DNA of 64,000 bases from a virus (IMGVR_UViG_3300050509_000221:1-64000); one strand, 5' to 3'; counted from the stretch's first letter, positions 3,458-46,732 are shown. Made by a program: numbers and translations. The notes: generated by a model not told the origin, from the sequence alone.

Positions 3458-3488
3458 TCTAGGTCGCTAGAGGTTCTAACGGGTTAGA
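3458..3488. promoter_or_regulatory. Tandem TCTA-N6-TAGA operators (3458-3471, 3475-3488)
   Basis: TCTAGGTCGCTAGA and TCTAACGGGTTAGA in an intergenic gap. Confidence 0.8.
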
Positions 3489-3552
3489 CCCGGATGCTCA
3501 GGGACTCGCTCGCCGGGCTGGTCAGGCGATGTCGCGTCGTTCCTTCCAGGCA

Positions 3553-4206
3553 TCATCGGGTGCCGGTGTCGTGGGTGGCGTCATCCGTTCCGGTGGCGCG
3601 ATCTTCCCCTTCGCGCGCGCAAGTTCGCGAAGCGCCAACACCCGAGATGCCAGCTCGGCCGAGGTGGGCGCGGAGGGTTCCGAGCTTGTCTGGTCCTCGG
3701 GCCCATTCGGGCGGTGGGGCTGCATCATCTGAATCCTCGATCGACTCTGGAGAGAATTCTGCCCTCTGGAGGCCCTCCGGATTGGGGCTTTGACCTGCGG
3801 AAACGCTGACCATGAGCGGACGGGGCCGTCCCGCGGATCGGACGGTGACGTCCGACGATCGGACGCCAGGGACCAACGCCAAGGCAGGTCGGACGGTGAC
3901 GTCCGATGGCGGGTCGAACTCGAGCACCCACCGGTCGACCTGCGTTGGGCGGATCGCGCCGACCGCGGCGAGCACCGCGAGGGTGCGGCGCACCGACCGT
4001 TCTGTCACCCCCAGCACGTCAGCGACATCGCGGCGTCGGCCCGGGTCGAGGCGGGCTTCTCCCGTCCGGTAGTCGGCGTGGCGGGCAGCCACGGCAGCGA
4101 ACACGGCCACGGCTGTCGCCGGCGACACGCCAGGGCGGTCCTCGGGCGCAAGGGCACCGAGGGCCTCCAGGAGCCACTCGGGTACACGGGCGAAGCGGGC
4201 GGTCAT
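3553..4206 (-). CDS. Putative replication initiator (wHTH)
   Basis: RRDVADVLGVTERSVRRTLAVL HTH; internal DNA repeats; 3' end uncertain. Confidence 0.6.
   Translation of the reverse strand: MTARFARVPEWLLEALGALAPEDRPGVSPATAVAVFAAVAARHADYRTGEARLDPGRRRDVADVLGVTERSVRRTLAVLAAVGAIRPTQVDRWVLEFDPPSDVTVRPALALVPGVRSSDVTVRSAGRPRPLMVSVSAGQSPNPEGLQRAEFSPESIEDSDDAAPPPEWARGPDKLGTLRAHLGRAGISGVGASRTCAREGEDRATGTDDATHDTGTR
3838..3906. repeat. Two perfect 18-bp palindromic direct repeats (candidate ori iterons)
   Basis: TCGGACGGTGACGTCCGA at 3838-3855 and 3889-3906. Confidence 0.7.
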
Positions 4207-4364
4207 GCCACCCGGCGTTCGAGATCCTCGAGGGCCGTGCAGCCGCACCGCGTCGCGCCATCGCGTGCCCAGCATGGGATGGCATCCCCGATAGTCGTGG
4301 TCTGCGTGACGATGTTCTCGCGGTGACGGACCTCGTCGTGGCCGCAGCGTCGACAGCGCCTCAC
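4203..4364 (-). CDS. Small Cys-rich protein (53 aa)
   Basis: CxxC...C...CxC; GTGA and ATGA overlaps. Confidence 0.5.
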   Translation of the reverse strand: MRRCRRCGHDEVRHRENIVTQTTTIGDAIPCWARDGATRCGCTALEDLERRVA

Positions 4365-4660
4365 CCGGTGAACCTCGGCACGGCACCCATCGGCGACGGC
4401 GCAGGTACAGCCTCGTCAGGTACCGGCTCCGCGACTGGCTGGCCGCACGATCCCACCGCGAGACAGTCGATCGTCTCCTGCTCCACGCGACCCTGACCGC
4501 CGTCGTCACCACCAGGACAGAACCCGTGGAGCTCCTGCCCGGCGTCGCACTGGCCGGCCGGGTCGAACTCCGCCGCGTGCGTCGCCCGGTACGTCCACAG
4601 CAGCAACGCGAGGACCAGCAACGCGCAGGTCGCCAACCGTCGCCAGTCGTGTCGGGTCAC
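4361..4660 (-). CDS. Small secreted or membrane-anchored protein
   Basis: N-terminal hydrophobic helix, four downstream Cys, Pro-rich tail. Confidence 0.55.
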   Translation of the reverse strand: MTRHDWRRLATCALLVLALLLWTYRATHAAEFDPAGQCDAGQELHGFCPGGDDGGQGRVEQETIDCLAVGSCGQPVAEPVPDEAVPAPSPMGAVPRFTG

Positions 4661-4803
4661 GGTTCGTCCCCCTCGTCGCGGTCGTTGTGGATCAGGTGAG
4701 GGCCACCACACGTGCATGACACAACGACCGCGCGTGCGTCTGCCTGGTTGTCGGCTGGTGTGTCGTCGCCCGTCGCGAGACACGTGACGGTGAGGTCATT
4801 CAC
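4657..4803 (-). CDS. Small hypothetical protein
   Basis: GTGA coupling on both sides. Confidence 0.45.
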   Translation of the reverse strand: MNDLTVTCLATGDDTPADNQADARAVVVSCTCGGPHLIHNDRDEGDEP

Positions 4804-5720
4804 GCGCTTCGCAGCGTGGGCTGCTCCCCCTCCGCGTCGGCGGCCTGTGGCGAGACGCGCGCGGCGACCCACTCCTGCGCCTCGGTCAAGCGCGAAGCCA
4901 GCAGGAACTCGGGGCGGCCGAACTGATCGAGGAACGCCTCCTTGGCCTTCACCTTCTCGCCTCGATCGGCGATCGTGTTGAGCTGCTCGACCATCGCGTC
5001 CACTGCCGCCCGCTCCGCGACCGGCTCGCCACCGGCGAGCCATTCCTTGTAGACGGTCGCGAACTCCTCAGCGTGTCCCGCGGTGAAGATCCGACCGACT
5101 GGCACTGCGTTGGTGCGCGACTTCCCGACCTGGAGCGCGTGCTGCATGTCGATCTCGATGGAGACGTTGACCTCGTACTCGAAGTCGTCGTCCTGTTGCG
5201 GGGCCATGCCGAGCTTGACGACCCTGATCTTGCCGTCCGCACCGACCTCTTGCGCGTGGTCCATGCGCGATCGGCAGCACGCGACGACATGGCAGTCCGC
5301 CTCGAGGATCGCCTCGGTGACATCGACCTGCGCCGGGCGCGCGTCCTTCCATCCCGTGAACTTCCCGTTGGCGATGTCGAGCGTGCCGCCGGCGCCGCGC
5401 CAGAAGTGCGTGAAGCTGTCGATGATGACGACGTCGTACGAGTCGCCGGCTTCCAGGAGTGTGTCGGCGAGCTCGCGTGGGTCGAACGGTGCGGACCAAC
5501 GCAGGTGCTCGAACGTGAAGAGGTCGGCGTAGGTGAGCGCCGATTCCTTCTCCGTGTCGACGACAAGGATGCGACCGTCCGGTCCGCCGAGCACCTCGGC
5601 GATCGTCAGCGCGGTGAACGTCTTGCCCGCGCCAGAGGGTCCGCCGAGGAGCATCTTGCCGTGCATCGCCGGGCGGATCGCCGCGCGGGCCTGCGTGAGC
5701 CTCGATTTCTTGGGTGCCAT
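4800..5720 (-). CDS. AAA_24 / Sak4-like ATPase (phage recombination)
   Basis: Walker A GPSGAGKT, Walker B VVIIDS; next to a Gam-like gene. Confidence 0.85.
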   Translation of the reverse strand: MAPKKSRLTQARAAIRPAMHGKMLLGGPSGAGKTFTALTIAEVLGGPDGRILVVDTEKESALTYADLFTFEHLRWSAPFDPRELADTLLEAGDSYDVVIIDSFTHFWRGAGGTLDIANGKFTGWKDARPAQVDVTEAILEADCHVVACCRSRMDHAQEVGADGKIRVVKLGMAPQQDDDFEYEVNVSIEIDMQHALQVGKSRTNAVPVGRIFTAGHAEEFATVYKEWLAGGEPVAERAAVDAMVEQLNTIADRGEKVKAKEAFLDQFGRPEFLLASRLTEAQEWVAARVSPQAADAEGEQPTLRSA

Positions 5721-5729
5721 GGGTCCTCC

Positions 5730-6332
5730 TCAGAGACGGGCGGTGTCATCGCCGTGGATCGACACCTCGAACTTCGGGTCTCGGCTTGTGACGGTCACGC
5801 CCGGTGGCGTCTCCCCGTCTTCGGTGACACCAAAAGCGATGGCGCGACCCTTGCCGTCGCGGCGTGTCAGCGCGTTCTTCGCTTCGGCCTTGTCGATCTC
5901 AGGGTCCGGGGCAGGCGGGTAACGCACCGCTTCGGGCGCATGGTCACGCGCCCACGCGATGAACGCTTCGTCGTCGAACTCCCACACCGGCTGCTGTGCC
6001 CGTGACGTGAGCGTCCCGTTGGGCAGCTCAATCGTCTTCGCCTTCGGGTTCTTCGCGAGGACCGCCGCGTGATACTGGGCAAGCTGGCCGGTGTGGTACT
6101 CGATCGCGCGGACGTGCTTCGCCTCCGCCGCTTCGAGCCACCGTTGCACTTGCTCGATCTGTGCTTCGGCGACTTCACGCAACGCGGCACGCTTACGGCG
6201 CTCGCGTGCCAGCCAGCCGATCGCACGGTTCGCCTCGAACGCGTCGGGGACCTCGATCGCTTCTGTCTCGTAGTCCGGCGGCTCGCCGAGCATGTCGACC
6301 TCGAGCTGTTCCCACGCATCGGCGATTGTCAT
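5730..6332 (-). CDS. Mu Gam-like host-nuclease inhibitor family protein
   Basis: Coiled coil followed by KTIELPNGTLTSR...DDEAFIAWA. Confidence 0.75.
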   Translation of the reverse strand: MTIADAWEQLEVDMLGEPPDYETEAIEVPDAFEANRAIGWLARERRKRAALREVAEAQIEQVQRWLEAAEAKHVRAIEYHTGQLAQYHAAVLAKNPKAKTIELPNGTLTSRAQQPVWEFDDEAFIAWARDHAPEAVRYPPAPDPEIDKAEAKNALTRRDGKGRAIAFGVTEDGETPPGVTVTSRDPKFEVSIHGDDTARL

Positions 6333-7491: not shown

Positions 7492-7895
7492 GGTGTCGCC
7501 CGACCAGCCACCACACGTGCGGCTTCTTCGGCCGCGCCGTGGGCGTCGTCTTCGTCGCGGGCGAAGAGCCACGCGTCGGCGTCTTGGAACGAGTCGAACG
7601 CGAGCGGCGAGTAGAGCGGGTCGCCCGTCTCCACGTCACACGGGTCCTCGGGGACCTTCGGCAGGAAGTCGTCGAGACCGCGACGCAACGCCGCGACGCT
7701 GTCGAAGTGCCAGATGCCCGCACCGTCAGGGCCGTCGCAACACAGGCAGCGCAACTCCCCGGCCTCGAAGAGGTGCACGCGGCATGCCGGACAGGTCGCG
7801 TCGTACTGGGCGTACGTGCCGTCGTCGTTGGCGTCGTAGCCGCACTGGTCGGCGTGGACAGGCGGGAGGGGAAGTAGCGTCGTGCTCATCGCCAT
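7488..7895 (-). CDS. Hypothetical protein with Cys clusters; first gene of early operon
   Basis: RBS GGAAGG; downstream of promoter 7960-7988. Confidence 0.6.
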   Translation of the reverse strand: MAMSTTLLPLPPVHADQCGYDANDDGTYAQYDATCPACRVHLFEAGELRCLCCDGPDGAGIWHFDSVAALRRGLDDFLPKVPEDPCDVETGDPLYSPLAFDSFQDADAWLFARDEDDAHGAAEEAARVVAGRATP

Positions 7896-7959
7896 CGGGT
7901 CCTTCCGGTGGTGGTCGTGCTCCCGGCTGCTACCAACAGCGCGGGAGCCTGCACCAGCA

Positions 7960-7988
7960 ACTCTAGCCGATTAGAGCCGGCGAGTCAA
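7960..7988 (-). promoter_or_regulatory. Sigma-A-type promoter with overlapping operator (7962-7975)
   Basis: TTGACT-17-TAGAGT on the minus strand; TCTAGCCGATTAGA overlaps the -10. Confidence 0.8.
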
Positions 7989-8208
7989 ACTCGCTAGAGC
8001 GTCCCGCGAGCGGGGGGCCGTTCGCGATCCACTCGTCGAGCCACGCTCGAGACACCCGCAGGGACCGGCCGACCTTCCGGCTCGGGATCCCGCCGTTGTG
8101 CTCTCCCCGTTGGATCAGCCGGTAGACGTGGGCCTCGGAGACCTTGAGGTAGGTGGCGACCTCGGGGACGGTCAGGACGGCGGGGGCGAGCACCGTAGAG
8201 GTCGACAC
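7963..8208 (-). CDS. xis: Excisionase/Cro-like HTH_17 protein
   Basis: LTVPEVATYLKVSEAHVYRLI...IPSRKVGRSLRV. Confidence 0.85.
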   Translation of the reverse strand: MSTSTVLAPAVLTVPEVATYLKVSEAHVYRLIQRGEHNGGIPSRKVGRSLRVSRAWLDEWIANGPPLAGRSSEFDSPALIG

Positions 8209-8214
8209 CGTCCG

Positions 8215-8243
8215 ACTGTACGCTCGCGTATCGTGGGCGTCAA
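8215..8243 (-). promoter_or_regulatory. Leaderless promoter of xis
   Basis: TTGACG-17-TACAGT, 6 nt before GTG 8208. Confidence 0.7.
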
Positions 8244-8287
8244 GTGACGCTCCACGCTCACTACTCTCCGCTACCGGGTTCGCCACT

Positions 8288-8692
8288 ATGCGTGGTATAC
8301 GCTCCCGCGTCGTGGGCGAGACAACGTTGGGCGAGGCGATCGACGCCGAACTGGCACGACGGCGGATCCGTCAACGCGCCGCGGCCAAGCAACTCAAGGT
8401 CTCACAGCAGACCTTGTCGAAGTGGCGCAGCGGTGTCCACTTCCCGTCCGAGCACTACCACGCCAGGCTCGCCGACTTCCTCGACCTCACCCCCGAGGCG
8501 ATCGACGCAATGCGTCCCGGTGGTGCGGTCAAGACGCGCCGCGCGAACACGTCACGCATCGACGAGCTCGAGACCGCGGTCAGCCGACTCGCGACGCGCC
8601 AGGCGGCACTGGTCGTGACGATCGAGTCGCTCGCCGAGCGTGCGGAAGCACTGGAGCGTCATCTCGATCGCCGAGACCGTCCCGCCGGCTGA
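8288..8692 (+). CDS. Immunity repressor (XRE HTH plus C-terminal coiled coil)
   Basis: QRAAAKQLKVSQQTLSKWRSG; divergent from xis. Confidence 0.8.
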   Translation: MRGIRSRVVGETTLGEAIDAELARRRIRQRAAAKQLKVSQQTLSKWRSGVHFPSEHYHARLADFLDLTPEAIDAMRPGGAVKTRRANTSRIDELETAVSRLATRQAALVVTIESLAERAEALERHLDRRDRPAG

Positions 8693-8866: not shown

Positions 8867-9982
8867 TCAACCGCCGTCGATCACCTCATCGAGGGCCAGC
8901 GCGAGGGCCTGGTCGCCCGGCTCGAGGAACGCCCGATACCGATCCAACGTCGTCGATTCCCGCGCGTGATCCGCACGCCCCGCCACCGCCGCGGGCGACG
9001 CGAGCTCGAGACCCTGCGTCGCCATGAAGTGCCGGAACTGGCGCAACTGCACACCCGCCGCGGCCGGCACCACCGCACGCACCTCGGCGAACCGCCGCGA
9101 GACCGTCTGAGGATGCCAATGGACACGACCCTCGGGGTCGGAGCAGAACACGTAGCCGTCCGTGTCGACCGTGGTTCCGAGCTCCGCGGCCAGTACGTCC
9201 TGCGCGTCAAGATGCGCGCGCAATGTGACAAGCGTCGCAGGCCCGATGGTGAGGCTCCGCTTGGACCGCGTCTTCGTCGGTTTCACGTACGCGGTGGTCG
9301 ACACGCCGATGGCCCGAACGATGCGGGCCCGGGCGTGTTCGAGGTCGAGGTCCGAGCGGCGAAGAGCGCAGACCTCCCCGCGGCGCTTGCCGGTGTTGGC
9401 CGCGAACCGCAAGAACGCGACGAGGCCAAGGTCCACGGCGGTGGCTGTGGCGAGCAGCTCGCGCAACACCGCGGGGGACGGGGCGGAGGTCTCGACGTCG
9501 CCGATCGCAGGTGGGCGGGCATGTTCGGCCGGGTTGCGGGAGATCCACCCCCACCGGACCCCGAGGCCGAGCGCGGCGCGGAGGTACCGGTGGACGCCGT
9601 TGATCGTGCTGGGCGACAGGGCCCGCTGGCCTTTCCAGCCTCGGGCCATAGCGAGGTAGAGGTCGTCGAGGTCGGCTGGTTGCAGCGACGCGATGGGCGT
9701 GGCCCCAAGCGTGGGGCGCACGTACCGCTCGAAGGATCGTCGGGCCTGGTAGCGGGTGGAGTCCTCGGGGACCCGCTCGAGCCATCGTGCGTACAGGTGT
9801 GCGAGGGGGGCGGTGTCTCCGTCGGCGACGCGTCCTTCGTCGCGTTGGGCGAGGAGGTCGACCTCGAGACGTTTGGCTGCGGCCTTGGTGGGTGCCATGC
9901 GGGACCGTTGCCGGCGACGGCCGTTGGAGTCGCGGCCGAGGTCGACAACAACCTCGTAGCCCTTCCCCCGCTTACGGATCAC
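8867..9982 (-). CDS. int: Tyrosine integrase with N-terminal arm-binding domain
   Basis: TGKRRGE (catalytic R), QFRH, RADH, DRY; beside attP; GTG 9982 is the probable start (ORF open to 10057). Confidence 0.92.
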   Translation of the reverse strand: MIRKRGKGYEVVVDLGRDSNGRRRQRSRMAPTKAAAKRLEVDLLAQRDEGRVADGDTAPLAHLYARWLERVPEDSTRYQARRSFERYVRPTLGATPIASLQPADLDDLYLAMARGWKGQRALSPSTINGVHRYLRAALGLGVRWGWISRNPAEHARPPAIGDVETSAPSPAVLRELLATATAVDLGLVAFLRFAANTGKRRGEVCALRRSDLDLEHARARIVRAIGVSTTAYVKPTKTRSKRSLTIGPATLVTLRAHLDAQDVLAAELGTTVDTDGYVFCSDPEGRVHWHPQTVSRRFAEVRAVVPAAAGVQLRQFRHFMATQGLELASPAAVAGRADHARESTTLDRYRAFLEPGDQALALALDEVIDGG

Positions 9983-10010
9983 CTCGCGAGCATGCCAGAC
10001 CAGCGTGACA

Positions 10011-10032
10011 AATGCGGGATTGGTGGCGGGAT
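10011..10032. promoter_or_regulatory. Integrase arm-type sites (int side)
   Basis: AATGCGGGATTGGTGGCGGGAT, two GCGGGAT repeats. Confidence 0.7.
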
Positions 10033-10040
10033 ACCGGCCC

Positions 10041-10054
10041 TCTACCCGGCTAGA
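10041..10054. promoter_or_regulatory. TCTA-N6-TAGA operator upstream of int
   Basis: TCTACCCGGCTAGA. Confidence 0.7.
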
Positions 10055-10081
10055 CAACGCCCGGTAGCCCTACTGTCACAA

Positions 10082-10130
10082 TGGAGCGGGTGACGAGAAT
10101 CGAACTCGCGTTCTCAGCTTGGGAAGCTGA
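10082..10130 (-). other. attP: attP common core = 3' 49 nt of tRNA-Gly(CCC)
   Basis: TCAGCTTCCCAAGCTGA anticodon arm, GCGAGTTCGATTCTCGT T arm, CACCCGCTCCA end; no 5' half. Confidence 0.9.
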
Positions 10131-10212
10131 GAAGTTCTCTCGCCTCTACTCGCCTGACCTCTCCGACCTGCGGTTACTCGGGCGTCAAGGTTCCACGTGG
10201 AACAACCACAAC

Positions 10213-10861: not shown

Positions 10862-10944
10862 CGTGTCTCATGTCGATCACCTCGTTCGTTGGGGTGGTCG
10901 GCTCAGGCCCCGCGGTCGGCCTGTAGTTGGCCGCGGGGCCGCTC

Positions 10945-11778
10945 CTACTGCTCCGGGCTCACGAACACGTCGAGGTAGTCCTTGTTGCGCACGGCGACGA
11001 AGCCGGCCCACCAGTACGGCCAGGTGGCCTTGTCCACACCGGGCGGGACCGGAAGCACCTTGCCCTCATTGATGAGGGTCTGCACCATGCCCTCATGCAG
11101 GGGCGCCGACACACACGCGCCGGACTGGTACCGGATCACTCCGGTGCCGTACTCGTTGACGAGCCAGCCTTTTGCCATATCGATCCCCTCGACCATCTCG
11201 AAGAACGCGCCGATCTGATCGACGCTCGGCTCGCGCTGGGCGACCATCGCGAGGAAGTCATCCCAGGGGAACTCCGGCCCTGGGTCCGATCGGTACGCGC
11301 CGACAGGCCAGCCCTCATGCCAGTCGGCGTGGCCAGCGAACCCGTCACGCTCACCCGCCCGGAGCTGCGCCCCGGTGAGACGCACGGGTCGAATGTGCGG
11401 GTACCGGCCGAGCAACGTCTGGCAACCGGCCGCGAGGTTGACGAGCTCCCAACGGGAGTAGTCGTCCTTCCAGTCGGCACCGTCCTGTCCTGCGTACCCG
11501 GCAAGCTCCCATTGGAGACTGACGTCGTTCGCCGGGCCTTCACCTGCACCCCAGCACCGTTGGTCCTCGGGGACGCAGCGGACGATCGAGTCGACATCGA
11601 CAGTGAAGTGTGTCGATGCCCTCACGTTCCCCGACGCGAAGTAGTTCGCGACACCCTCCGCGCCGAACGGCGTCTCTGGGGTCTCGGCGGTGTGGATCGT
11701 GATGACCGACACCTCGCGGATCGCCGGGCCGAAGAAGCTCGCCTGGACGTACGGCGCGGAGTCGAGGTCGACGGCCAT
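10945..11778 (-). CDS. Endolysin, N-acetylmuramoyl-L-alanine amidase (Amidase_2)
   Basis: ITIHTAE, ASTHF, GHADW...SDPG Zn-amidase motifs. Confidence 0.9.
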   Translation of the reverse strand: MAVDLDSAPYVQASFFGPAIREVSVITIHTAETPETPFGAEGVANYFASGNVRASTHFTVDVDSIVRCVPEDQRCWGAGEGPANDVSLQWELAGYAGQDGADWKDDYSRWELVNLAAGCQTLLGRYPHIRPVRLTGAQLRAGERDGFAGHADWHEGWPVGAYRSDPGPEFPWDDFLAMVAQREPSVDQIGAFFEMVEGIDMAKGWLVNEYGTGVIRYQSGACVSAPLHEGMVQTLINEGKVLPVPPGVDKATWPYWWAGFVAVRNKDYLDVFVSPEQ

Positions 11779-12241: not shown

Positions 12242-12319
12242 ACGGGTTGACCTCCGAGCGCGCGGGTGCGAACAGAGGTGACGGTACGGGGACACCGCAG
12301 AACCCTCAGGGACTCGGCC

Positions 12320-12349
12320 TTGACGCTCCGCTCTCTAACCGGCTAGAGT
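12320..12349 (+). promoter_or_regulatory. Leaderless promoter with overlapping operator (12334-12347)
   Basis: TTGACG-18-TAGAGT, 7 nt before GTG 12357; TCTAACCGGCTAGA. Confidence 0.8.
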
Positions 12350-12356
12350 CCGAGGC

Positions 12357-12680
12357 GTGGTTGCTGTCGCCCGCCGCTACCGGCTCGAGCTCGTCACCGC
12401 GATCGCCGTGATCGCGGCTGGGATGGCGGACGCCTGGACAACCCATGCTGGGCTGGAGCGTGGCGCGACGGAAGCGAACCCGGTCGGCGCCCGTGCGTTC
12501 GACGCTCTCGGTGTCCTCCCGGTGCTCGCGCTGCGCGTCGTACTTCCCGCGGTGGCCGCGTGGGCGATCGTCCGTGCCGCGCGGCGTGACCCGATTCTGC
12601 ATCGCGTCGCGGTCGTAGCGGTGCTCGTGATGGCGGCCGGTTGGACAGGGCTCGCTGTGCGGAACATGCTCGTCGGGTGA
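12357..12680 (+). CDS. DUF5658-like membrane protein (moron)
   Basis: DAWTT...GATEANPV motif, three TM segments. Confidence 0.7.
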   Translation: MVAVARRYRLELVTAIAVIAAGMADAWTTHAGLERGATEANPVGARAFDALGVLPVLALRVVLPAVAAWAIVRAARRDPILHRVAVVAVLVMAAGWTGLAVRNMLVG

Positions 12681-25273: not shown

Positions 25274-27106
25274 TCAGCTCGCGGTGGTCGGGCAGGAGAA
25301 CGCGGTGGTCAGCGCGGCGCGGGTGCCGTTCGGGCACACGGTGAGATGCAACGTGTACGCCGGGTGGCAGCCGTGCTTCGCGAGACCGACGTACTCCTCC
25401 TGGAACCACTGGAGCTGGTTGCGTCGCGCGAGGTCGGGGGACGTCTGGACGCCGGTCTCGATCTCACCGGTCGAGAAGTACAGGAACGACTCGGGGGCGA
25501 GCAGCCGGGCCTTGAAGGGACGTGTGGTCCCACCGAGGCCGGGCAACGCGACCTTCCCTGCGGTGCCTGCGGTGGGCAGCGACGCGAACGGCGTCTGCCC
25601 GGCGGTCTCGATGTCGTCGAGGTCCACGACTCGGACGTTCTTGCCGGCGTCGCTGCACGACTGCTCGATGTACGCGGCGATCTCGCCTCGCTGCGACTGG
25701 TCCAGGTACGCCTGGTTCTCCCGGTCGATGACGAGCGCGGAGAGCAGCCCGGGCGGGGCGTAGAACACGTACGGGGCGTCGTCGAGACGCTCCGGGTACT
25801 CGCCCTGCTCGAGCGTCGTCAGGATGACCTGCACGATGCCGGGCAGCGCCCCGTACGGGGTCGCGGCCTCGAAGTGGTGCGAGAACGTGTCGGCGATCTG
25901 GAGCAGCCGGCCGGTCTTCGTGCGGGCCTTCTGCGCCTTGATCTTCGACATGGCGTCCCGGATGCGTTCCTGGTTGCTCATGTCGGTCGTCCGGTCGAAG
26001 TACATGCACGCCGTGATCGCTTCCGCGGTGACGGACAGCGGCGACGGGCACGTCACCTGGACGCACGGCTTCCACGTACCGACGGTGCCGGCCACGACGT
26101 TGCTCTGGTCGGTCTCGTCCCACACGTCGACACCCGACGAGATGGCCGAGAGACCCATCGACGGGGTGTACGTGAAGCCGAGCCGCCCGGCGGGCCGCAT
26201 GGGCAGCGAGTCGGAGAACGGCTCGGTGGACTGCACGCAGTCCGGGATGTCACGCAGCGGCTCGTACGGGGTGCAGATCGCCGCGACACGGGACTCGGGG
26301 GCACGGGCGGCGTCCCACCGGGCACGCCACTCGGCGTTCGCTTCGCGGATCATCCGGTCGGTCTCCACCGCCGACTGCGAGAGACGCTCGACGCCCATCG
26401 TGTTCGGGTCGGCGTCGTAGCCGGCGATGGCCGCGATGCGGGCGGTGGCCTTCTCGGCCGGGTTGCCCTGGAGGACCTGGCCGCGCGCGGACTGGAACGC
26501 GACGGCGAGCTGCTCGTAGTCGACACCGCCGTCGCTGTCCATCACGGTCGCCGCGCCGAGACCCGCCGTGACCGCGAGGGGCGTGACCGGACGGTGACCG
26601 GCGGGGCCGCCGGGCGGGGGTGGCGACGCAGGGTCGGTGACCTGGGCCAGTTCGGCTTCGGTGATCGCAGCGACGACCGGGACCGGCTCGGCCTCCACCG
26701 GTGCGGGCTCCGCGGCCGGCTCGGCTGCTTCCGCGGCGGGGGCTTCTGGCGCGACGGCAGGTTCGGGGAGCGGCTCCGCGAACGTGATCTCGTTCAGCGC
26801 ACCGATCGCTTCGGCTTCGACGGTGGTGACGGCCGTGGCCTGCTCCGTGACCTGACGCCACTCGTCGGCGATCTCGCGGGCCCGGAGGACACCGATGCCG
26901 GGCGTGCGGGCTTCGGTCTCCAGGTGGGCGCGGTACGCGGTGAGCGACTGGCGGAGCTCGCCGAGTTGCTCGACACTCAACGCGTCGAGGGACTCGGGGA
27001 CCTCGGGACGGGTCGGCGTGGTGGGCTCGCCGTCGCCGCCGCGGACACCATGCTCGAAGATTGAACGGTGGCGGGGGCTGAGGCCGGTGAGGTCGAAGCG
27101 GTCCAT
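25274..27106 (-). CDS. Major capsid protein with N-terminal scaffold region
   Basis: RBS GAGGAG; coiled-coil and Pro/Ala/Glu-rich N-terminus followed by a capsid-like domain. Confidence 0.8.
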   Translation of the reverse strand: MDRFDLTGLSPRHRSIFEHGVRGGDGEPTTPTRPEVPESLDALSVEQLGELRQSLTAYRAHLETEARTPGIGVLRAREIADEWRQVTEQATAVTTVEAEAIGALNEITFAEPLPEPAVAPEAPAAEAAEPAAEPAPVEAEPVPVVAAITEAELAQVTDPASPPPPGGPAGHRPVTPLAVTAGLGAATVMDSDGGVDYEQLAVAFQSARGQVLQGNPAEKATARIAAIAGYDADPNTMGVERLSQSAVETDRMIREANAEWRARWDAARAPESRVAAICTPYEPLRDIPDCVQSTEPFSDSLPMRPAGRLGFTYTPSMGLSAISSGVDVWDETDQSNVVAGTVGTWKPCVQVTCPSPLSVTAEAITACMYFDRTTDMSNQERIRDAMSKIKAQKARTKTGRLLQIADTFSHHFEAATPYGALPGIVQVILTTLEQGEYPERLDDAPYVFYAPPGLLSALVIDRENQAYLDQSQRGEIAAYIEQSCSDAGKNVRVVDLDDIETAGQTPFASLPTAGTAGKVALPGLGGTTRPFKARLLAPESFLYFSTGEIETGVQTSPDLARRNQLQWFQEEYVGLAKHGCHPAYTLHLTVCPNGTRAALTTAFSCPTTAS

Positions 27107-27279
27107 CTTGGGCTCCTCGTGGTGCAACGGGTCACGCGCCGGTGGCGCGGGGTCTCGGTGCGACCGCTACGAGGGAGCCTCAAGGGCTTCCGCTCCGGTG
27201 CCACAGGGGCACCGGCGTCGTCGGAGGTCAGTATGGCACGCCCGGTTGTCGTGGGCGTGGATTCTCTCTGCGGGACGCG

Positions 27280-27332: not shown

Positions 27333-27409
27333 TGGTGGCAGGGGCGGGCTTCGATCCCGCGACTTCCTGGTTATGAGCCAGGCGAGCTGCCAGACTGCTC
27401 TACCCTGCT
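27333..27409 (-). tRNA. tRNA-Met(CAU), initiator-like, 77 nt, CCA encoded
   Basis: Full cloverleaf: AGCAGGG/CCCTGCC acceptor, GAGC/GCTC D stem, CCTGG-CTCATAA-CCAGG, GCGGG-ATCGAAG-CCCGC. Confidence 0.9.
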
Positions 27410-27416: not shown

Positions 27417-27446
27417 ACTCTAGTCGCCTAGACCGACAGGTGTCAA
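27417..27446 (-). promoter_or_regulatory. Promoter of tRNA-Met with overlapping operator (27419-27432)
   Basis: TTGACA-18-TAGAGT, 7 nt before the tRNA 5' end; TCTAGTCGCCTAGA. Confidence 0.8.
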
Positions 27447-28160
27447 CCGTTCGGCGAGTAGGGCGCGCATCTCGTCCGGTTTGCCCGACGCGTGGAGGTA
27501 CCGGATCTCCAGGGCATGGTTCGTGTCGTACACCACGCCGGGGTCGGCCCGCGGGTGGTACAGGTGCCAGAGCGGAGCAACACCCCGCCAGTGGGGGCCC
27601 GCGAGGGTGTCGAGCGCATGGCCGAACGCGGCGTCTTCGCCACCCCACCCCTCGAAGCGTTCATCGAACCCGCCGACTGTCTCCCATGCGTCGCGCGACA
27701 CGACGAGGATCCCACCACCGGGGACACCGAGGTAGGGGGCACGTTGGCCGTCCTGGCGGGACACAGGCCCGACGGCGACATGGACGCCATGCCGGTAGAG
27801 GGAGCTGGTCGTGTCGGAGTTGAGCCGGTACACCATCCGGTGCGGCACCGCCCACGATGCTCCCCGGTCGACCGCGTCGACCGCACGCTCGAGCGCGGCG
27901 GGTTCGACGAGGCAGTCGGCGTCATGAACCACGATCACACGCCCGGTCGTCGCGGTGACCGCGGCGTTCACCGCGCGGGGTTTCGACCATCCGGTGTGGG
28001 GCTCTACCGCGAAGCACGCCGGCCAGTCGGGGTGCATCGCGTGGAGGTAGCGACGGACGAACGCGGCGGCGCGAGCTCGGATGCGGGACCCGCCACGCCG
28101 GTACGGGACGATCAGGACGGGCACAGCAACGCCCGGTAGCGGGGCGCCCACCGTTCCCAT
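27420..28160 (-). CDS. Glycosyltransferase, GT-A fold (GT2/GT7-C)
   Basis: LIVPYR, VHDAD, GGFDERFEGWGGED; start may be 28124. Confidence 0.85.
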   Translation of the reverse strand: MGTVGAPLPGVAVPVLIVPYRRGGSRIRARAAAFVRRYLHAMHPDWPACFAVEPHTGWSKPRAVNAAVTATTGRVIVVHDADCLVEPAALERAVDAVDRGASWAVPHRMVYRLNSDTTSSLYRHGVHVAVGPVSRQDGQRAPYLGVPGGGILVVSRDAWETVGGFDERFEGWGGEDAAFGHALDTLAGPHWRGVAPLWHLYHPRADPGVVYDTNHALEIRYLHASGKPDEMRALLAERLTPVGLGD

Positions 28161-35359: not shown

Positions 35360-37099
35360 TCAAACGCTCAGGGACTCCAACTCGGCGGTGGGGCCTGTCG
35401 TGTACGGCTCGTAGGACTCTTCGATCGTGCAGGTGCAGCCGTCGTGGTCGCCAGGCTGGTACACGTCGACATACGGGAAGGCGGCGGGGTCCGCGGCGAG
35501 TTCGTCGGGTTGGGTGTCGACCCAGGTGACACCGTCGAGGGCTTGGTGTGGCTCGAACGTCCGGGCCGGGTCGCCATGGACCCATGTGGACCTGACGATC
35601 ACGGGGACGTTCGTGTCGGTGAGGAGCTGCCCGGCGAGGGTGGTGCCGGGTTCGACGCGTGGGATGGGTGTCGTGGGAACGGGACCGGGGCCGGTTTCGG
35701 CACGGAGAGGCGCGGTCGCGTTGGTGGCGCCGAGTGCCCATGTGGAACGCACGAGCGAGAACGGCACGGGCCCCGCCTGCTCCCCGAGTGCATCACCCGC
35801 GATGTCGCCGGCGAGGCGGGCACGGGCGAGAAGCGCGACACCGGCGGCGAGGAACCCGGCTGCGGTGTGGGCACGTCGGTCGATTTCGTCTTCCCACTGG
35901 TCGTCGGGTTCGACGCCAAGCGCGCGGGCCGTGGCGCGCAGCTTGCGGAGTTCGGCGGTGACGATCCACCCTTCGGCGGCGAGGGCCAGTTCGTCGAAGC
36001 GTTTGTCGAGGAGTTCTTGTTCGGTGACACCCAACGCGGCGACCAGCGCCGGGGGGTACCGGCCGTCAGCAGCGTTGAGCGCGGCACGTTGCGCGTTGTT
36101 GCGGGCCTTCTGGTTGAGCTTCACGGTCGCGGCGCGGACTGCTTCGGCGAGGGCGACTTGGGCGGCGGCGTGGAGTTTGACGCGGAGGCGTTGGTCGGTC
36201 TGGTTGAGGGTGCGGGACAAGCCGGCGAGCCGGTCGCTCTCGACTCGTGCGAGCGCCGCGGTGACGGGTTGGGTCCACGGGTCTGCGTGCTGGCGGTTCG
36301 TCAGCGGATAGAACGCCGAGCTGTCACCCCACACCAACGCGACCTGATCGGCGGTCCACTCGACCGGGGCCGGAAGCGGGCCGGGTTCCATCCCTGCGGG
36401 GAGTGCATCGGCGGGCCAGTACCCGAGCGTGAGGTGGGGATGGAACGCGAACCGGTCGGAGTGTTCGATGTCGCCGAGTGCTTGGCGGAGCCGCTCACGG
36501 AGGTCATACACGGCGGGGGCACCGGTGACGAGCACCACAGGGCTGATGCCATCCTCGTTGGCCGGGAACACGTCGAGGTGCGTGAAGGACAGCGCGACGG
36601 GTTCCATCGTTGGCGTCACCGCCCGTAGCCTGTCCGCGATGCGGACGTGTTCGGCTGGTGCGAGGTCGTCGCTCTTCCCGAGGAAGAAGAGGGTGACGTG
36701 CATGTTGTCGGCCGGTTCGCCGTCCGACACGGCGAGCCGTTCCGCGATCGAAGACGGGCAAGTGAGCGCGACCATCGCGCCTGCGCCTTCCATGCCGGAC
36801 ACGGCGGCGACCTCGACGTCAGCTTCGTACGGTTGGATCTGGTCGACCCACACGCGGGCCGGACGGCCGCCGTAGAGACCGGCGAGCATCGTGGACGCGT
36901 CGCCTTTCACTTCGTCGGGGTGGTCGCGATGCCAGGCGTGGAGCTCGTCGAGTTCGTGGCCGGTGACGACCCCGGTCGTGAGCGCGGTTGCGATGGTGAC
37001 GCCGCGGGCGGTGCCACCCTGGCCGCGTTCGGCTCGGGTGTGGAGCGCCGCGCGGGCGGTGCGGGCGACGTCTTCGGGGACAGCGAGAAGGTCGGTCAC
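35360..37099 (-). CDS. MuF-like head morphogenesis protein with internal 2H phosphoesterase domain
   Basis: HVTL and HLTL motifs; C-terminal W..GD..R..H..LDG...PG...CTC. Confidence 0.75.
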   Translation of the reverse strand: MTDLLAVPEDVARTARAALHTRAERGQGGTARGVTIATALTTGVVTGHELDELHAWHRDHPDEVKGDASTMLAGLYGGRPARVWVDQIQPYEADVEVAAVSGMEGAGAMVALTCPSSIAERLAVSDGEPADNMHVTLFFLGKSDDLAPAEHVRIADRLRAVTPTMEPVALSFTHLDVFPANEDGISPVVLVTGAPAVYDLRERLRQALGDIEHSDRFAFHPHLTLGYWPADALPAGMEPGPLPAPVEWTADQVALVWGDSSAFYPLTNRQHADPWTQPVTAALARVESDRLAGLSRTLNQTDQRLRVKLHAAAQVALAEAVRAATVKLNQKARNNAQRAALNAADGRYPPALVAALGVTEQELLDKRFDELALAAEGWIVTAELRKLRATARALGVEPDDQWEDEIDRRAHTAAGFLAAGVALLARARLAGDIAGDALGEQAGPVPFSLVRSTWALGATNATAPLRAETGPGPVPTTPIPRVEPGTTLAGQLLTDTNVPVIVRSTWVHGDPARTFEPHQALDGVTWVDTQPDELAADPAAFPYVDVYQPGDHDGCTCTIEESYEPYTTGPTAELESLSV

Positions 37100-42621: not shown

Positions 42622-42624
42622 GCG

Positions 42625-45252
42625 TCAACGACGCAACGACCCCGCGGCTGCTCCCGCCGCCGCGCTGATCCCACCCGACGTTGCGCCTTCTTGGCGGATC
42701 CAGTTGAACCCATGCGCGCCCGCGTCGACTTGGTCGTCATGGTCCCCGAGGGGGAACCCCTCCAACTCGGCGAGGAACACCCGGCTCCCCGACCGGTGCC
42801 CGTCGCGGTCCGGTGCCTGCTCGACGATCGTGACGAGACCGTTTTCCATCGCGGATGCCATCCCCGCCGCCCGGTCTTCTTTCGTGCCGATCGGGGAGAC
42901 CTTCGTCGCACGGAACCCGGCGAACACCTCGCGTACGAGCCGGTCGGCTTCGTCGCGGCCCAGGTCCCCCGGGCGGCGCTCCACAAGGTGAGTCACCGCG
43001 TCGATGCCGCCGCATTCGTCGGCGTCAGCGCGGGCGGTGGCACGCATGATGTTGTCGCGGGTGCCTGCGGCGTGACGGAACCGGACGATGTCCTCGATGC
43101 GGTACCGGTGCGTGTCGGGGTCGTAGGCCCATCGGACACCGACGGTCCAGTCCGGGTCGTTCTTCCCGTCGAACTCGGTGCCGGCCTGGTCCCACGCCCG
43201 GCACCGTTTCACCGTCGGCTCATACGACATCGGGCCGTCCGTCCAGTGGTCCTTCATCCAGTCCCACGCGGCGAACTTCCCACCAGAGCGGAGCTCCACC
43301 TGATGTTGCGCCTCGATGAGGAACGCGGTGCGGCCCCACAGCTTGATCTGCTGGCGGATCTGATCGGGCCCCTGACCGTCCCAGACGATGTCACCCTCGA
43401 GGTACGTGTCGAGGCCGTCGTTGTCCTTCCCGAGCACCAGGCCCCGCACCGCGGGGACCGGGCCGTCGCCCCACATGACACGATCCTGGAGGAAATCGGC
43501 TGACTGTTCCGCGAGGCCCGCGATGCGAGCAAAGACACCGTTGGGGAGAACGAGGTTCTGCACGGCAAGGACCGTGCCGTTCGGTGCCAGCGCGGGGAGG
43601 AACGTGCGGGTGAGTTGGTCGATCTTGCGGGCCGTGACTTTCGGGCTGTCGTTGGCGTCGTCGATGTCGTCGAACACGATGAGGTCGGGGCGTTCCTCGT
43701 CAAGTTTCGCTCCCCGCGCAGCAGAGTCGAGACCGATCGCGTCGACGGTGAACCCGGCCGCGGAACGAAGTCGTTCGCGTCGCCATCCTCGGGAGCGGCC
43801 GAACTTGTTGACGAGTTGCTCGCCGATCTCCGGGTACAGGTCAGCGACCCGGGGCGACTCGAGAAGTTTCCCGACGTTGCCGACATGGTCTTCGGCTTGG
43901 TCTTGGGTGTCGCAGTTGTGCGATCGGGCGAAGTGCGTCCGGTAGTCACCGGTTGATGTGGTGATGGACACGAACCGGCGTTCCGTCACCGGGTCGACGG
44001 TCTTCACCCGTGACCACAGATGGCCTTCGCCGATCCACACATCGCGGAGCTGGTTGCGATGTTGGCCTGCCGGAAGTCCCAGTGGGCGGCCGTCGAAGAA
44101 CCGGAGTGCGTAGCCGGACGCCTCCCTGATGGCGCGTCCGCGGATGTGTCCTCCACCGCGGCGATGGGGGCCACTGATCGTGCAGGCAACACCGAGACGA
44201 GCAAGCATCCGTCGGACTGCTAGGAGGCCTGGCAGATGCACGCCCGACAGATAGACGCCACGAGCGCTCACGTATCCGTCGGCGTCCACGTAGCCCCTCA
44301 GCAGGGCTGCCTGCTGAGTTGCAGGCAGCCACTCGACCCAGGCTGGCGGCGTCTTCCGACTGTTGCCGTACTTCCACGTGCGTAGCCAGTCAGCAAGGTC
44401 CGGAAGCCAGAACGACACCGAGCTCAGGCGGCCTTGACCGCGCCGCTCACCCCAGCAGACGCCACTCCGGTCCAGGAGGCTCAGCAGGCGTCGGCGAACG
44501 GCAGGGTGGTCGTCGGACAGTGCGAAGGAAATCTGGCGTCCCTGCGGCCCGCCGAGCGTGCCGTCACCCCACCAGAGACCGGTCGCCCACCACCACTCGG
44601 GGTCCGCGAGGAGCGGACTCGGCCAGGACTCTGGCACCTCGGAAGTGGTGTCGATGGGCAACCCGAGCCACGTTGAACGGTCCAGGTTATGCGCCTCAAC
44701 CCACGCAGGTTCTCCCCGAGTGATCTCGACGCGACGCCCGTGGCCGCGGTCGCGGCGCATGATCCGACGTGCCCAGTACCGGTGCTCGGCCGTGACTACC
44801 TCGCTGCTCGGGAGTCCCACCACACGCACCTCCAGGCCATCACAGCGCCGTTCGGTGGCCGTCGGGTGCTCGTCCACGGTCATCCAGCCGAAGTCGGGAT
44901 CGAGAACCTCCGTCCCGGTCTCGTGGCACACGTAGAGGACGTACCTGCGACGGCCTCTGGCGCCGGCGGCAGCGAGGGCGAGTTCGACTGAGGTTGACTT
45001 CGCTCCGCCTCGGGCCCAGATCCCCACGCCGGGCTGTTGCCACCGGTCTAGTTCCAGGGCCCAGACCCAGTTCCAGAAGTCGATGTGGTGGGGGGCGAAA
45101 CCGGCGGTGACGTAGCTGGGGAACAGGTAGCGGAGCCAGGCGCCCCAGGATTCCTCGAGTTCGTCGCGCAAGCACACCATGAGCGCGGTGACGTCCGCGG
45201 GGTCGTGTGCCTGGCCGATGGCTTCCCGGTACAGGTCGAGGTCGACGGTCAC
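42625..45252 (-). CDS. terL: Terminase large subunit (intein-containing)
   Basis: Walker A RGGAKST, Walker B IVFDDID, nuclease AWDQA and DDQVDA. Confidence 0.92.
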   Translation of the reverse strand: MTVDLDLYREAIGQAHDPADVTALMVCLRDELEESWGAWLRYLFPSYVTAGFAPHHIDFWNWVWALELDRWQQPGVGIWARGGAKSTSVELALAAAGARGRRRYVLYVCHETGTEVLDPDFGWMTVDEHPTATERRCDGLEVRVVGLPSSEVVTAEHRYWARRIMRRDRGHGRRVEITRGEPAWVEAHNLDRSTWLGLPIDTTSEVPESWPSPLLADPEWWWATGLWWGDGTLGGPQGRQISFALSDDHPAVRRRLLSLLDRSGVCWGERRGQGRLSSVSFWLPDLADWLRTWKYGNSRKTPPAWVEWLPATQQAALLRGYVDADGYVSARGVYLSGVHLPGLLAVRRMLARLGVACTISGPHRRGGGHIRGRAIREASGYALRFFDGRPLGLPAGQHRNQLRDVWIGEGHLWSRVKTVDPVTERRFVSITTSTGDYRTHFARSHNCDTQDQAEDHVGNVGKLLESPRVADLYPEIGEQLVNKFGRSRGWRRERLRSAAGFTVDAIGLDSAARGAKLDEERPDLIVFDDIDDANDSPKVTARKIDQLTRTFLPALAPNGTVLAVQNLVLPNGVFARIAGLAEQSADFLQDRVMWGDGPVPAVRGLVLGKDNDGLDTYLEGDIVWDGQGPDQIRQQIKLWGRTAFLIEAQHQVELRSGGKFAAWDWMKDHWTDGPMSYEPTVKRCRAWDQAGTEFDGKNDPDWTVGVRWAYDPDTHRYRIEDIVRFRHAAGTRDNIMRATARADADECGGIDAVTHLVERRPGDLGRDEADRLVREVFAGFRATKVSPIGTKEDRAAGMASAMENGLVTIVEQAPDRDGHRSGSRVFLAELEGFPLGDHDDQVDAGAHGFNWIRQEGATSGGISAAAGAAAGSLRR
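43915..44928 (-). mobile_element. Intein (338 aa) with LAGLIDADG homing endonuclease
   Basis: C1 (CHETG), block B TAEH, ATGLWWGDG and LRGYVDADG, terminal HN followed by C+1. Confidence 0.9.
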
Positions 45253-45815
45253 GCGGTGTGCTTCGCGCGTTGATCCGCCACCTCGTCGCGTTGCTGTGCG
45301 ACCTGTTCGATGAGCTCGCGGCCTCGTGCTCGTTGCGCTTCGATTTCGACGTGTTCGACGCGGGCTTCGATCTTCACCGGCTTGTCGAGGCCGAGAAGCC
45401 GGGCGGTGCGGTCGTGGGAGGCGTGCATCTTGTCGAGCGCGGCGAGGCGCACGTCGGGCTTCTGGGCGGGGTCGAGAGCGATCGTCGCTGCGACTTGGCG
45501 GGTGCGGTCCAAGATGGCGAGTTGCCGGTCGACGTGCGCCTCGAATGTCTCGGTGGTGCGTTCACGCCACTGGCCGCGGATCCAGATGATGTCGCGGTGG
45601 ATGGTGCCGGTCCCGACATGGAGGGCGTCGGCCATGACGCGTTGCGGGGTGCCCTGGAAGAGCATGTCGGCGACAGCTCGTCGGCGGAGCGCGATGCGGT
45701 CCTTCTTCGCTCGGCGGTGTGCCTTCGCTTCGCGTTCCGCTTCTCGGTCGGCCCATTCGGCCCGGAACCGTTGCCACCATTCGCTGTTGTTGAGCGGGGC
45801 GATCTCGGCGTTCAT
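45249..45815 (-). CDS. terS: Terminase small subunit
   Basis: HTH (QRVMADALHVGTGTIHRD) plus RTARLLGLDKPVKIE; directly upstream of terL. Confidence 0.75.
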   Translation of the reverse strand: MNAEIAPLNNSEWWQRFRAEWADREAEREAKAHRRAKKDRIALRRRAVADMLFQGTPQRVMADALHVGTGTIHRDIIWIRGQWRERTTETFEAHVDRQLAILDRTRQVAATIALDPAQKPDVRLAALDKMHASHDRTARLLGLDKPVKIEARVEHVEIEAQRARGRELIEQVAQQRDEVADQRAKHTA

Positions 45816-46087
45816 GCCGCTCGTCGCCGGCGACGCTGGTTCGGGTTGAGGCCACCCCACATGCCGTGGTCGATCTTGTTCACGACCGCGAAGTCGCGAC
45901 ACGCCGCCCGGACCGGGCACTCGGCGCAGATCCGTTTCGCTTCATGGTCGTACGCGACGGCCCCCGGGCCTGGTGGTACGAGCTCGGGGAACCAGAGGTC
46001 GGGGTTGGGGTGGTCTCGGCAGGCGGCGTCGGTCATCCAGTCGTCGTCGCCGATCGGGGCGAGGAGTGACAGGGCTGGCCCGGTCAT
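45812..46087 (-). CDS. whiB: WhiB-family transcription factor
   Basis: WM.DAAC...CAECPVRAAC...GMWGG. Confidence 0.9.
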   Translation of the reverse strand: MTGPALSLLAPIGDDDWMTDAACRDHPNPDLWFPELVPPGPGAVAYDHEAKRICAECPVRAACRDFAVVNKIDHGMWGGLNPNQRRRRRAA

Positions 46088-46386
46088 GCTGCTGCTCCGG
46101 TGACAGCAACGCCGGCGGCTTCCCACAGGCAGTGACGCACCATCGCTTCGGTGTCGCCAAGGTTGACGGGTTGGGCCTTCACGAGACCGTCGATCATGTC
46201 GGACGCGATGGCGTGGGGGTCTCGGTCGAGTCGGATCGAGATGACCACTTGGCTGGGGTGTCGGCGGAGGGTGCGGTCGCTGTCGACGTGGGGTGGTGAA
46301 CGAAACGCGGGCGCGACGAGACCGAGTCGGGTGGCCTCGACTTGGAGGCTGCGGGCTATGCGCGCGAACTCGGTGGCGCTCGTCAC
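46084..46386 (-). CDS. Conserved hypothetical protein (paralog of 55996-56310)
   Basis: EF..AR......GL..PAFR.PP motif shared. Confidence 0.7.
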   Translation of the reverse strand: MTSATEFARIARSLQVEATRLGLVAPAFRSPPHVDSDRTLRRHPSQVVISIRLDRDPHAIASDMIDGLVKAQPVNLGDTEAMVRHCLWEAAGVAVTGAAA

Positions 46387-46395
46387 ACCATGCGG

Positions 46396-46409
46396 TCTAA
46401 CCCGTTAGA
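46396..46409. promoter_or_regulatory. TCTA-N6-TAGA operator
   Basis: TCTAACCCGTTAGA, 9 nt upstream of GTG 46386. Confidence 0.75.
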
Positions 46410-46651
46410 GCCTCGGGGGGTTGGACTGCGGCGTGGCGGTCACGGAGGTACTCGGCCAGTTTGCGGAGGGTCCGCATGCTGGGCGGGCCGCCGACATGCC
46501 AGTGGGTGGGGTTGAACGGGCAACGGTACGCGGCGATCTGTTCCCCTCGTTCACGTTGGTAGACAGCGAGGCGCATCGCGCCGGCACGGGTGCGGCGCTT
46601 CTTGCGTCCGCAGACCCACCAGCGGAGCCGGTCGAGCTGCTCGGGTGCCAC
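46397..46651 (-). CDS. Small zinc-finger-like protein
   Basis: CGRKKR...AYRCPF...WHVG; RBS GGAGG. Confidence 0.65.
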   Translation of the reverse strand: MAPEQLDRLRWWVCGRKKRRTRAGAMRLAVYQRERGEQIAAYRCPFNPTHWHVGGPPSMRTLRKLAEYLRDRHAAVQPPEALTG

Positions 46652-46718
46652 GATCTGTGCCTCCCAGTCGGGGACGGTGATCCTCCACCGTCACGCGCCC
46701 GACGAGAGGGACCAGCGG

Positions 46719-46732
46719 TCTAGCCGGGTAGA
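46719..46732. promoter_or_regulatory. TCTA-N6-TAGA operator
   Basis: TCTAGCCGGGTAGA, exact reverse complement of 10041-10054. Confidence 0.75.

Follow-up and report, generated by a model that had tools for sequence, protein, structure and literature searches.

Probable dispersed operators in a temperate actinophage

Symmetric operators that are associated with promoters and dispersed along the phage genome are known for gp33 of the mycobacteriophage BPs and for phage phiC31 (PMC4557955), and a set of comparable design is described here from an uncultured virus. The sequence in question is IMGVR_UViG_3300050509_000221, of which bases 1-64,000 of the 82,663-base IMG/VR record are referred to as the window. 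Eight exact copies of the palindrome TCTA-N6-TAGA are found between positions 3,458 and 46,732 of the window, and it is proposed, with a rough probability of 0.62, that these are the operators of one dimeric helix-turn-helix (HTH) regulator, the 'reader', encoded by a 54-kb temperate actinophage.

In BPs, gp33 acts through a 12-bp palindrome that is found at five loci, with four promoters being controlled (PMC4557955). The full operator in this Cluster G phage comprises a perfect palindrome and a degenerate partner at a short fixed spacing, an arrangement that recurs here; the 5 bp between the BPs 12-mers correspond to 17 bp from centre to centre, the same distance as that between the sites at 3458 and 3475 in the window. 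The two phages are also alike in the layout of the integrase, the leftward repressor, the switch and the early genes. They differ in the operator itself, which is CGACATATGTCG in BPs and TCTA-N6-TAGA here, in that the BPs motif is present at the repressor's own switch whilst the switch of this phage is without it, and in that the half-site itself is the source of the -10 element here, unlike in BPs. Repressor c of phiC31 is similar in that it has inverted-repeat sites genome-wide in front of transcription units (PMC4557955). No sequence relation to repressor c was seen here, although none was tested for. At least 18 sites are found in phiC31, where the early promoters are not sigma-70-like and the repressor is made as three large isoforms.

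A further class of dispersed site, the stoperator, is known from gp71 of the Cluster A phage L5, from the Rhodococcus phages of Cluster CA and from the Streptomyces phages R4 and phiScoe (PMC9283540, PMC13313380, PMC10276819). As with the palindrome described here, stoperators consist of one 13-14-bp site repeated many times, between genes or over their ends, alongside an operator at the early promoter; indeed, published stoperators occupy gene termini too (PMC13313380). They silence the prophage and block elongation, and the sites at 46719, 46396 and 10041 would work in the same way. Stoperators are, however, asymmetric sites that follow the direction of transcription and bind a monomer, whereas here a perfect dyad is found in eight copies, three or four of which are embedded in promoters. 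Being a dyad, TCTA-N6-TAGA falls outside the strict definition of a stoperator. The first-pass annotation of the window had drawn a contrast of this kind, which overstates the novelty, as symmetric dispersed operators have been published for BPs gp33 and phiC31 (PMC4557955). The logic of dispersed operators is thus already known (BPs gp33, phiC31, L5, R4 and Cluster CA), and what stands out in the present phage is an operator that doubles as a -10 element, together with its probable orphan reader.

A discrete set of palindromes at gene boundaries

A pattern search for TCTA-N6-TAGA (TCTANNNNNNTAGA) returned eight exact sites in the 64,000-nt window, compared with a mean of 0.01 and a maximum of 1 in 100 dinucleotide-preserving shuffles of the same sequence, and so the count is well above background. 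All eight lie where the first-pass annotation had placed them (3458, 3475, 7962, 10041, 12334, 27419, 46396 and 46719). The other 18.7 kb of the record contains no copy, and a control search with the reversed pattern gave none. When one mismatch was permitted in the eight fixed bases the only extra sites were 3435-3448 and 7985-7998, each centred 23 bp from an exact site; the second of these had already been picked out as a degenerate copy. A weight matrix was trained on the eight exact sites and scanned over the 82.7-kb record: the eight sites scored 18.5-26.5 bits and the copy at 7985 scored 14.6 bits, with every other position at 5.0 bits or below. This gap in the scores indicates that the sites form a discrete set and are not the top of a continuum. 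The matrix consensus, GCTCTAACCGGTTAGAGC (written out, sTCTArCC.GGyTAGAs), is self-complementary, such that the site is a dyad with invariant halves and a weakly preferred centre and flanks.

The exact and degenerate sites, listed without strand, are:

3435-3448: degenerate site TCTA-N6-TCGA, 23 bp from 3458
3458-3471: exact site TCTAGGTCGCTAGA, the middle of the sole triple cluster, ~28 nt upstream of a gene for a 101-amino acid (aa) HTH protein
3475-3488: exact site TCTAACGGGTTAGA, centred 17 bp from 3458, with no usable -10
7962-7975: exact site on the -10 of the early promoter, also forming the final codons of the HTH_17 gene, TAG stop included
7985-7998: degenerate partner (14.6 bits) on the -35 element TTGACT, 23 bp from 7962
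10041-10054: exact site upstream of the tyrosine integrase gene, with no canonical -10 on either strand
12334-12347: exact site on the -10 of the promoter (plus strand) ahead of the DUF5658 membrane gene
27419-27432: exact site on the -10 of the tRNA promoter, within which the GT2 glycosyltransferase gene at 27420-28124 ends (TAG)
46396-46409: exact site between genes one (84 aa) and two (100 aa) of the packaging operon
46719-46732: exact site in the gap between the HTH-WhiB fusion gene, which ends 91 nt upstream, and the first gene of the packaging operon, which begins 68 nt downstream

Five of the exact sites are fully intergenic, and each of the other three (7962, 27419 and 46396) takes in the final four codons of the upstream minus-strand gene together with its TAG stop. 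By the gene calls made here ~11% of positions are non-coding. The placement at gene boundaries that was claimed at first pass is therefore upheld, and the motif is confirmed as a highly non-random, phage-specific palindrome at such boundaries. Literature searches with motif strings found no paper on TCTA-N6-TAGA.

The record itself looks to be a chimera (discussed below), in which bases 1-54,247 are a closed 54,247-bp phage, X, and bases 54,375-82,663 are a 28-kb fragment of a second phage, Y. All eight exact sites fall in X, the distal right arm of which (46.8-54.2 kb) holds none; the co-assembled Y fragment is also without the motif and serves as an internal control. An earlier remark that no site is found beyond 46.8 kb is thus correct as a count, but is in part a matter of assembly, given that the sequence from 54,375 onwards appears to come from another phage.

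Predicted promoters with a built-in half-site

At three of the sites the TAGA of the palindrome provides the first four bases of a -10 element whilst the TCTA lies in the spacer. When judged by SigA/sigma-70 criteria (TTGACN, a 16-18-bp spacer and TANNNT), the three embedded promoters score 9-10 out of 12, and their transcription starts are predicted. They had been quoted in the first-pass annotation, and a consensus scan returned them exactly as written:

7960-7988, minus strand: TTGACT-17-TAGAGT, ahead of the early operon, with a 58-nt leader and the first ATG at 7895
12320-12349, plus strand: TTGACG-18-TAGAGT, 7 nt to GTG 12357, a leaderless geometry
27417-27446, minus strand: TTGACA-18-TAGAGT, 7 nt from tRNA-Met, the 5' end of which is at 27409, followed by the major capsid gene at 25274-27127

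The consensus scan, which covered 1-40 kb, found five sigma-70-like promoters, four of which have a TAGAGT -10. Two strong promoters are without the palindrome: 2375-2347 (TTGACG-17-TAGAGT), which is 6 nt from the GTG of an SprT-like gene (1861-2340) and is the one consensus TAGAGT promoter outside the regulon, and 8243-8215 (TTGACG-17-TACAGT), which is 6 nt from GTG 8208 of the HTH_17 frame. The palindrome is therefore an addition to the promoter and not a by-product of it.

The sites proposed to gate these genes do lie ahead of the early operon, the integrase gene, the DUF5658 gene, the tRNA-Met and the small genes leading up to the terminase, but a recognisable promoter is found at just three or four of the eight. 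No -10 with the invariant final T is present at 46719, 3475 or 10041, and at 46719, where no -10 is usable, there is no TA step downstream. The site at 46396 offers just a T-less box, TAGACC (with no T at -7), 7 nt before GTG 46386. When the degenerate site at 3435 is read on the minus strand, its TAGA and the adjoining TT form the -10-like TAGATT (3438-3433), directly before GTGs 3430 and 3424. A plus-strand candidate in the same cluster (TCGACA-17-TAGAGG, 3445-3473) was set aside as probably non-functional, as it lacks a T at -7 and is not accompanied by a convincing gene on that strand. The sites that are not in promoters look like roadblock or auxiliary sites. Perfect and degenerate copies are paired at 23 bp at two loci (3458 with 3435, and 7962 with 7985) and a perfect pair is spaced at 17 bp (3458 with 3475), whilst the remaining five loci are single sites.

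Two other features are found close to these sites. The leader of the early operon contains a long imperfect hairpin (GCTCCCG...CGGGAGC) at 7915-7950, just past the predicted start. The 12-mer CTCAGGGACTCG is present in two exact copies (3497-3508 and 12305-12316), each adjoining an operator site, and in one-mismatch copies at 35367, 39836 and 42611, which are three late-gene junctions; as a second motif it was dropped, with 17 matches at up to two mismatches against 11.8 expected.

A model for operator function

In the 434 operator, ACAA-N6-TTGT, the half-sites are one helical turn apart, which fits a dimeric HTH protein, and because the half-sites of TCTA-N6-TAGA are spaced in the same way a reader of this type is predicted. 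A single factor for all of the sites would be the most economical reading; we infer protein binding, repression and the identity of the reader from sequence. At the TAGAGT promoters the bound dimer would cover approximately -21 to -8 and so exclude the host SigA-type polymerase, occluding the early promoter (7988-7960), the DUF5658 promoter (12320-12349) and the tRNA-Met/capsid promoter (27446-27417). At the promoter-less sites (46719, 46396, 10041 and 3475) the bound protein would either support cooperative binding or form a roadblock, the latter keeping the integrase off and stopping right-arm read-through into the packaging operon; in a circular genome, the transcription blocked would include right-arm read-through across the genome ends. 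The degenerate partners at 23 bp and the 17-bp pair may allow cooperative binding, as for BPs gp33.

If the reader is the lysogenic repressor, the DUF5658 gene is off in lysogens. This gene had been termed a membrane moron at first pass; a reverse-oriented DUF5658 membrane gene does lie behind the site, but the 'moron' label is a guess. What emerges for this uncultured 54-kb actinophage is a regulatory map that lends itself to testing, with three near-consensus, leaderless-type promoters that have a predicted built-in operator and five putative auxiliary or roadblock sites. One of the embedded promoters would drive the phage tRNA-Met, and probably the capsid gene too.

Analogous arrays in other phages

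Arrays of this kind were found in two further IMG/VR genomes. In G152 (45.7 kb, GC content 0.66) there are six copies of GTCTA-N6-TAGAC versus none of the control, mostly at an XRE/XRE switch, and in G153 (44 kb, GC content 0.51) there are 13 copies of AATTCTACYYRRGTAGAATT in the right arm, versus two of the control. Each genome has one tandem pair 17 bp apart, and in G153 the half-site once more forms a -10, in this case TAGAAT. Both phages are uncultured, complete and unrelated, with no regulator in common and with differing central bases and flanks, and are to be regarded as analogues and not relatives. The appearance of the TCTA-N6-TAGA design, with TAGAnT as the -10, in two unrelated phages suggests that an operator half-site doubling as a -10 is a recurrent, convergent solution. 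A scan for the pattern TTGAC-N8/9-TCTA-N6-TAGAGT gave 116 matches, mostly unrelated singles, and a few high-GC contigs have TCTAC-N4-GTAGAGT promoters, none of them with proteins in common with this phage.

Candidate readers of the palindrome

The regulatory genes of X, and a second palindrome that lies amongst them, are:

3125-3430, minus strand: P0021, a 101-aa orphan HTH protein, the first candidate reader, directly behind the triple site
7963-8208, minus strand: HTH_17 (Xis/Cro-like) gene, leaderless from TTGACG-17-TACAGT (8243-8215)
8237-8250, no strand: unique perfect palindrome GCGTCAAGTGACGC (GCGTCA-N2-TGACGC), between the divergent XRE and HTH_17 genes, on the -35 of the latter's promoter
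8312-8692, plus strand: XRE-type (HTH_3/HTH_31) repressor with a coiled-coil tail, with a -10-like TACGCT 8 nt from its GTG
46824-47723, minus strand: HTH-WhiB fusion of 299 aa, with the HTH at residues 46-96 (HTH_38/LacI/TetR_N-like) and the WhiB domain at 188-255

P0021 is the leading candidate, with a chance that falls only just short of even. Since its gene is directly behind the sole triple site, P0021 would be autoregulated. The gene is co-oriented with the early genes, a placement like that of the repressor genes of L5 and phiC31, which are co-oriented with their neighbours and not divergent (PMC4557955). A 53%-identical homologue is conserved across a long helix and the HTH-like segment, and P0021 is evidently a real conserved gene. 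Its structure model has four helices and is HTH-like (pLDDT 72), its neighbours in language-model space are HTH_23 or sigma region 4-like, and there is a weak PHROG match to an HTH protein family. A profile search of 1.8 billion proteins found one true homologue, and P0021-based searches of IMG/VR found nothing.

More broadly, the reader may be a second orphan regulator and not the XRE protein, either P0021, as an L5/phiC31-style master repressor of an undescribed family, or the HTH-WhiB fusion, as a sigma-tethered factor that reads dyads; this is put forward tentatively, with the balance leaning somewhat against it. It would entail two independent operator codes, a local one at the switch (GCGTCA-N2-TGACGC) and a genome-wide one (TCTA-N6-TAGA), of which the latter would gate the early genes, the integrase, the tRNA/capsid promoter and entry to the packaging operon. 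The switch region (8194-8311) and the HTH_17 promoter contain no copy of TCTA-N6-TAGA, in line with the first-pass observation that the motif is missing from the immunity switch, and GCGTCAAGTGACGC is likely to be a separate local operator. Because one HTH protein rarely reads two unrelated dyads, two regulators are likely. Were P0021 the reader, it would represent a new repressor family amongst the few phages with genome-dispersed operators (L5, phiC31, BPs and R4), and would offer a compact pair of repressor and operator-in-promoter as a possible switch for high-GC actinobacteria.

Several observations weigh against the reading of the palindromes as operators of one phage-encoded HTH regulator, or against P0021 as that regulator. 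Four of the eight sites are without a recognisable promoter, and so -10 occlusion accounts for only half of them. Relatives are few and short: a portal search found just two short loci, L007 (47% identity), which has one copy inside a 906-aa open reading frame, and L008 (48% identity), which has none. The P0021 family is tiny, with 10 matches at E<=1e-3 and just P0021 and P0023 past E 1e-10, and the fold matches of P0021 to HTH domains are weak (E >=0.25). Production of P0021 in lysogens would entail co-transcription of the DnaN-like gene that overlaps it. The switch palindrome is single-copy and could be due to chance (~0.2 by a rough estimate). Finally, the same kind of palindrome is found in the divergent XRE/XRE switch of G152, which favours an XRE-type reader.

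In the strongest of the rival explanations the operator network is the same and the reader is the XRE immunity repressor (8312-8692), which would silence the whole prophage in the manner of BPs gp33. The XRE protein is the sole classic lysogeny-oriented repressor, being divergent and leaderless-looking, with an HTH_3/HTH_31 domain and a coiled coil; the 4-N6-4 geometry fits operators of the XRE family, such as those of phage 434, and the early promoter at 7988-7960, which must be off in lysogens, is ~320 bp from its gene. This explanation is nevertheless unlikely, as the XRE control region has no site, the divergent promoter at 8243-8215 has a different perfect palindrome, and the densest cluster of sites is 5 kb from the XRE gene and in front of another HTH gene. 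A tblastn search of 50,697 phage records with the XRE gene gave no match, and hence no homology to any characterised repressor was found amongst them; for HTH_17, the same type of search against cultured phages found just Paenibacillus HTH proteins.

The HTH_17 protein and the HTH-WhiB fusion are both improbable as readers. The fusion is a further candidate in that its gene, the last of the right arm, adjoins site 46719, and it combines a sequence-specific HTH with a WhiB domain. WhiB-type proteins bind region 4 of SigA. One explanation, more doubtful still, has the reader acting via the polymerase, as the HTH-WhiB fusion tethered to SigA region 4 or as a Cro/Xis-like HTH_17 protein, and timing or activating transcription instead of maintaining lysogeny. 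The -10-like TAGACC boxes at 46719 and 46396 would need help of this kind, and the end of the HTH_17 gene falls inside site 7962. However, the embedded promoters are near consensus already, such that an activator is unnecessary, and a site over -21 to -8 is in the position of a repressor; moreover, HTH_17/Xis-type proteins usually read direct repeats, and neither gene has an upstream site. What is left of the odds, after P0021, the XRE protein and these two, falls to a host or other factor.

A further possibility is that the phage has copied into its promoters a palindrome recognised by a transcription factor of the host, such as one of the TetR type. The tetO operator is likewise a TCTA...TAGA palindrome, and in the host genome G129 a pair of TCTAC-N4-GTAGA sites lies 17 bp apart, upstream of a gene whose product has a TetR-like N terminus, from which it follows that such dyads are ordinary HTH operators. 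The chance that this explains the phage sites is slim. Across 151 Actinomycetes genomes there were 0-14 copies per genome, with none in 75 and most counts below the reversed control, and in no genome was there a regulon-sized excess, although the test is indirect with respect to the phage's own host; within this sample a host regulon was rejected. The sample includes the unpublished genomes G015 and G043, and the result is independent of both. In a 6.2-Mb Rhodococcus genome TCTA-N6-TAGA is present in three copies versus 16 of the control pattern, and eight copies in 54 kb amount to an excess of two orders of magnitude. Phage Y, which is probably from the same community as X, is also without the motif.

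Least probable of all is that the sites are RNA hairpins or terminators, or targets of one of the two DNA methyltransferases that the phage encodes. The palindromes are able to form small hairpins and the bipartite 4-N6-4 word resembles Type I targets, but these hairpins have little stability (-4.7 to -8.1 kcal/mol), for the most part do not improve on shuffled sequence and are without U tracts. At three sites the palindrome is upstream of the predicted start and would not be transcribed from that promoter. Rfam found just the tRNA, and on this result and the weak hairpins the RNA reading was rejected; a methylation target would not be restricted to gene boundaries.

Structure of the record and gene order of phage X

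The closed-phage reading of X is based on the contig beginning exactly at a 127-nt exact repeat, as is expected of a de Bruijn assembler closing a cycle: record bases 1-127 are identical to 54,248-54,374, with 98% identity continuing to base 203 and divergence thereafter. The reading is supported by a separate 54,328-base contig in the protein database, on which the X portal and the 101-aa protein of X are also recorded. The junction between X and Y looks to run through a shared pentapeptide-repeat gene. A second virion gene set is found at 64-82.6 kb, with a terminase 39% identical to that of Gordonia phage Eyre, accompanied by a separate integrase and repressor at 60-61 kb and by RecET genes. 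The '82.7 kb, 98% complete' label of the record is thus probably wrong, which matters for those who use the IMG/VR entry as a genome of that length and completeness.

The GC content is 0.65-0.72 and nearly all genes are on the minus strand. From 46.75 kb downwards, two small genes are followed by:

45812-46087, minus strand: WhiB gene
45249-45815, minus strand: gene for a 188-aa protein whose PHROG match carries the annotation 'Rnase E'
27420-28124, minus strand: GT2-type glycosyltransferase
27333-27409, minus strand: tRNA-Met, then the 617-aa major head protein (25274-27127)
12357-12680, plus strand: DUF5658 membrane gene, reverse-oriented
8867-10057, minus strand: tyrosine integrase, with the best-scoring start at 9982

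Between the 188-aa gene and the glycosyltransferase are an 875-aa large terminase, the portal, a MuF/ligase-like gene, an ATPase and several unannotated genes. The major head protein is followed by a 990-aa protein and then by the DUF5658 gene, an amidase, the integrase, the reverse-oriented XRE repressor and the HTH_17 gene, beyond which the early genes begin. The early genes encode Mu Gam-like, AAA_24, winged HTH (wHTH), 101-aa HTH, DnaN-like and SprT-like proteins.

Some minor features of X were also observed. Tandem repeats of ~60 nt (86-93% identity) are present at 53889-54066, inside the pentapeptide-repeat gene (53823-54500). A 62-nt stretch that is 89% identical is common to X (10897-10956) and Y (record 65889-65948), at the 3' ends of lysis-region genes, and is apparently another mosaic junction. 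A perfect 10-bp hairpin (TTCTCAGCTT-aag-AAGCTGAGAA) at 10111-10133, in the stretch that separates the lysis genes from the integrase, could be a terminator or part of attP.

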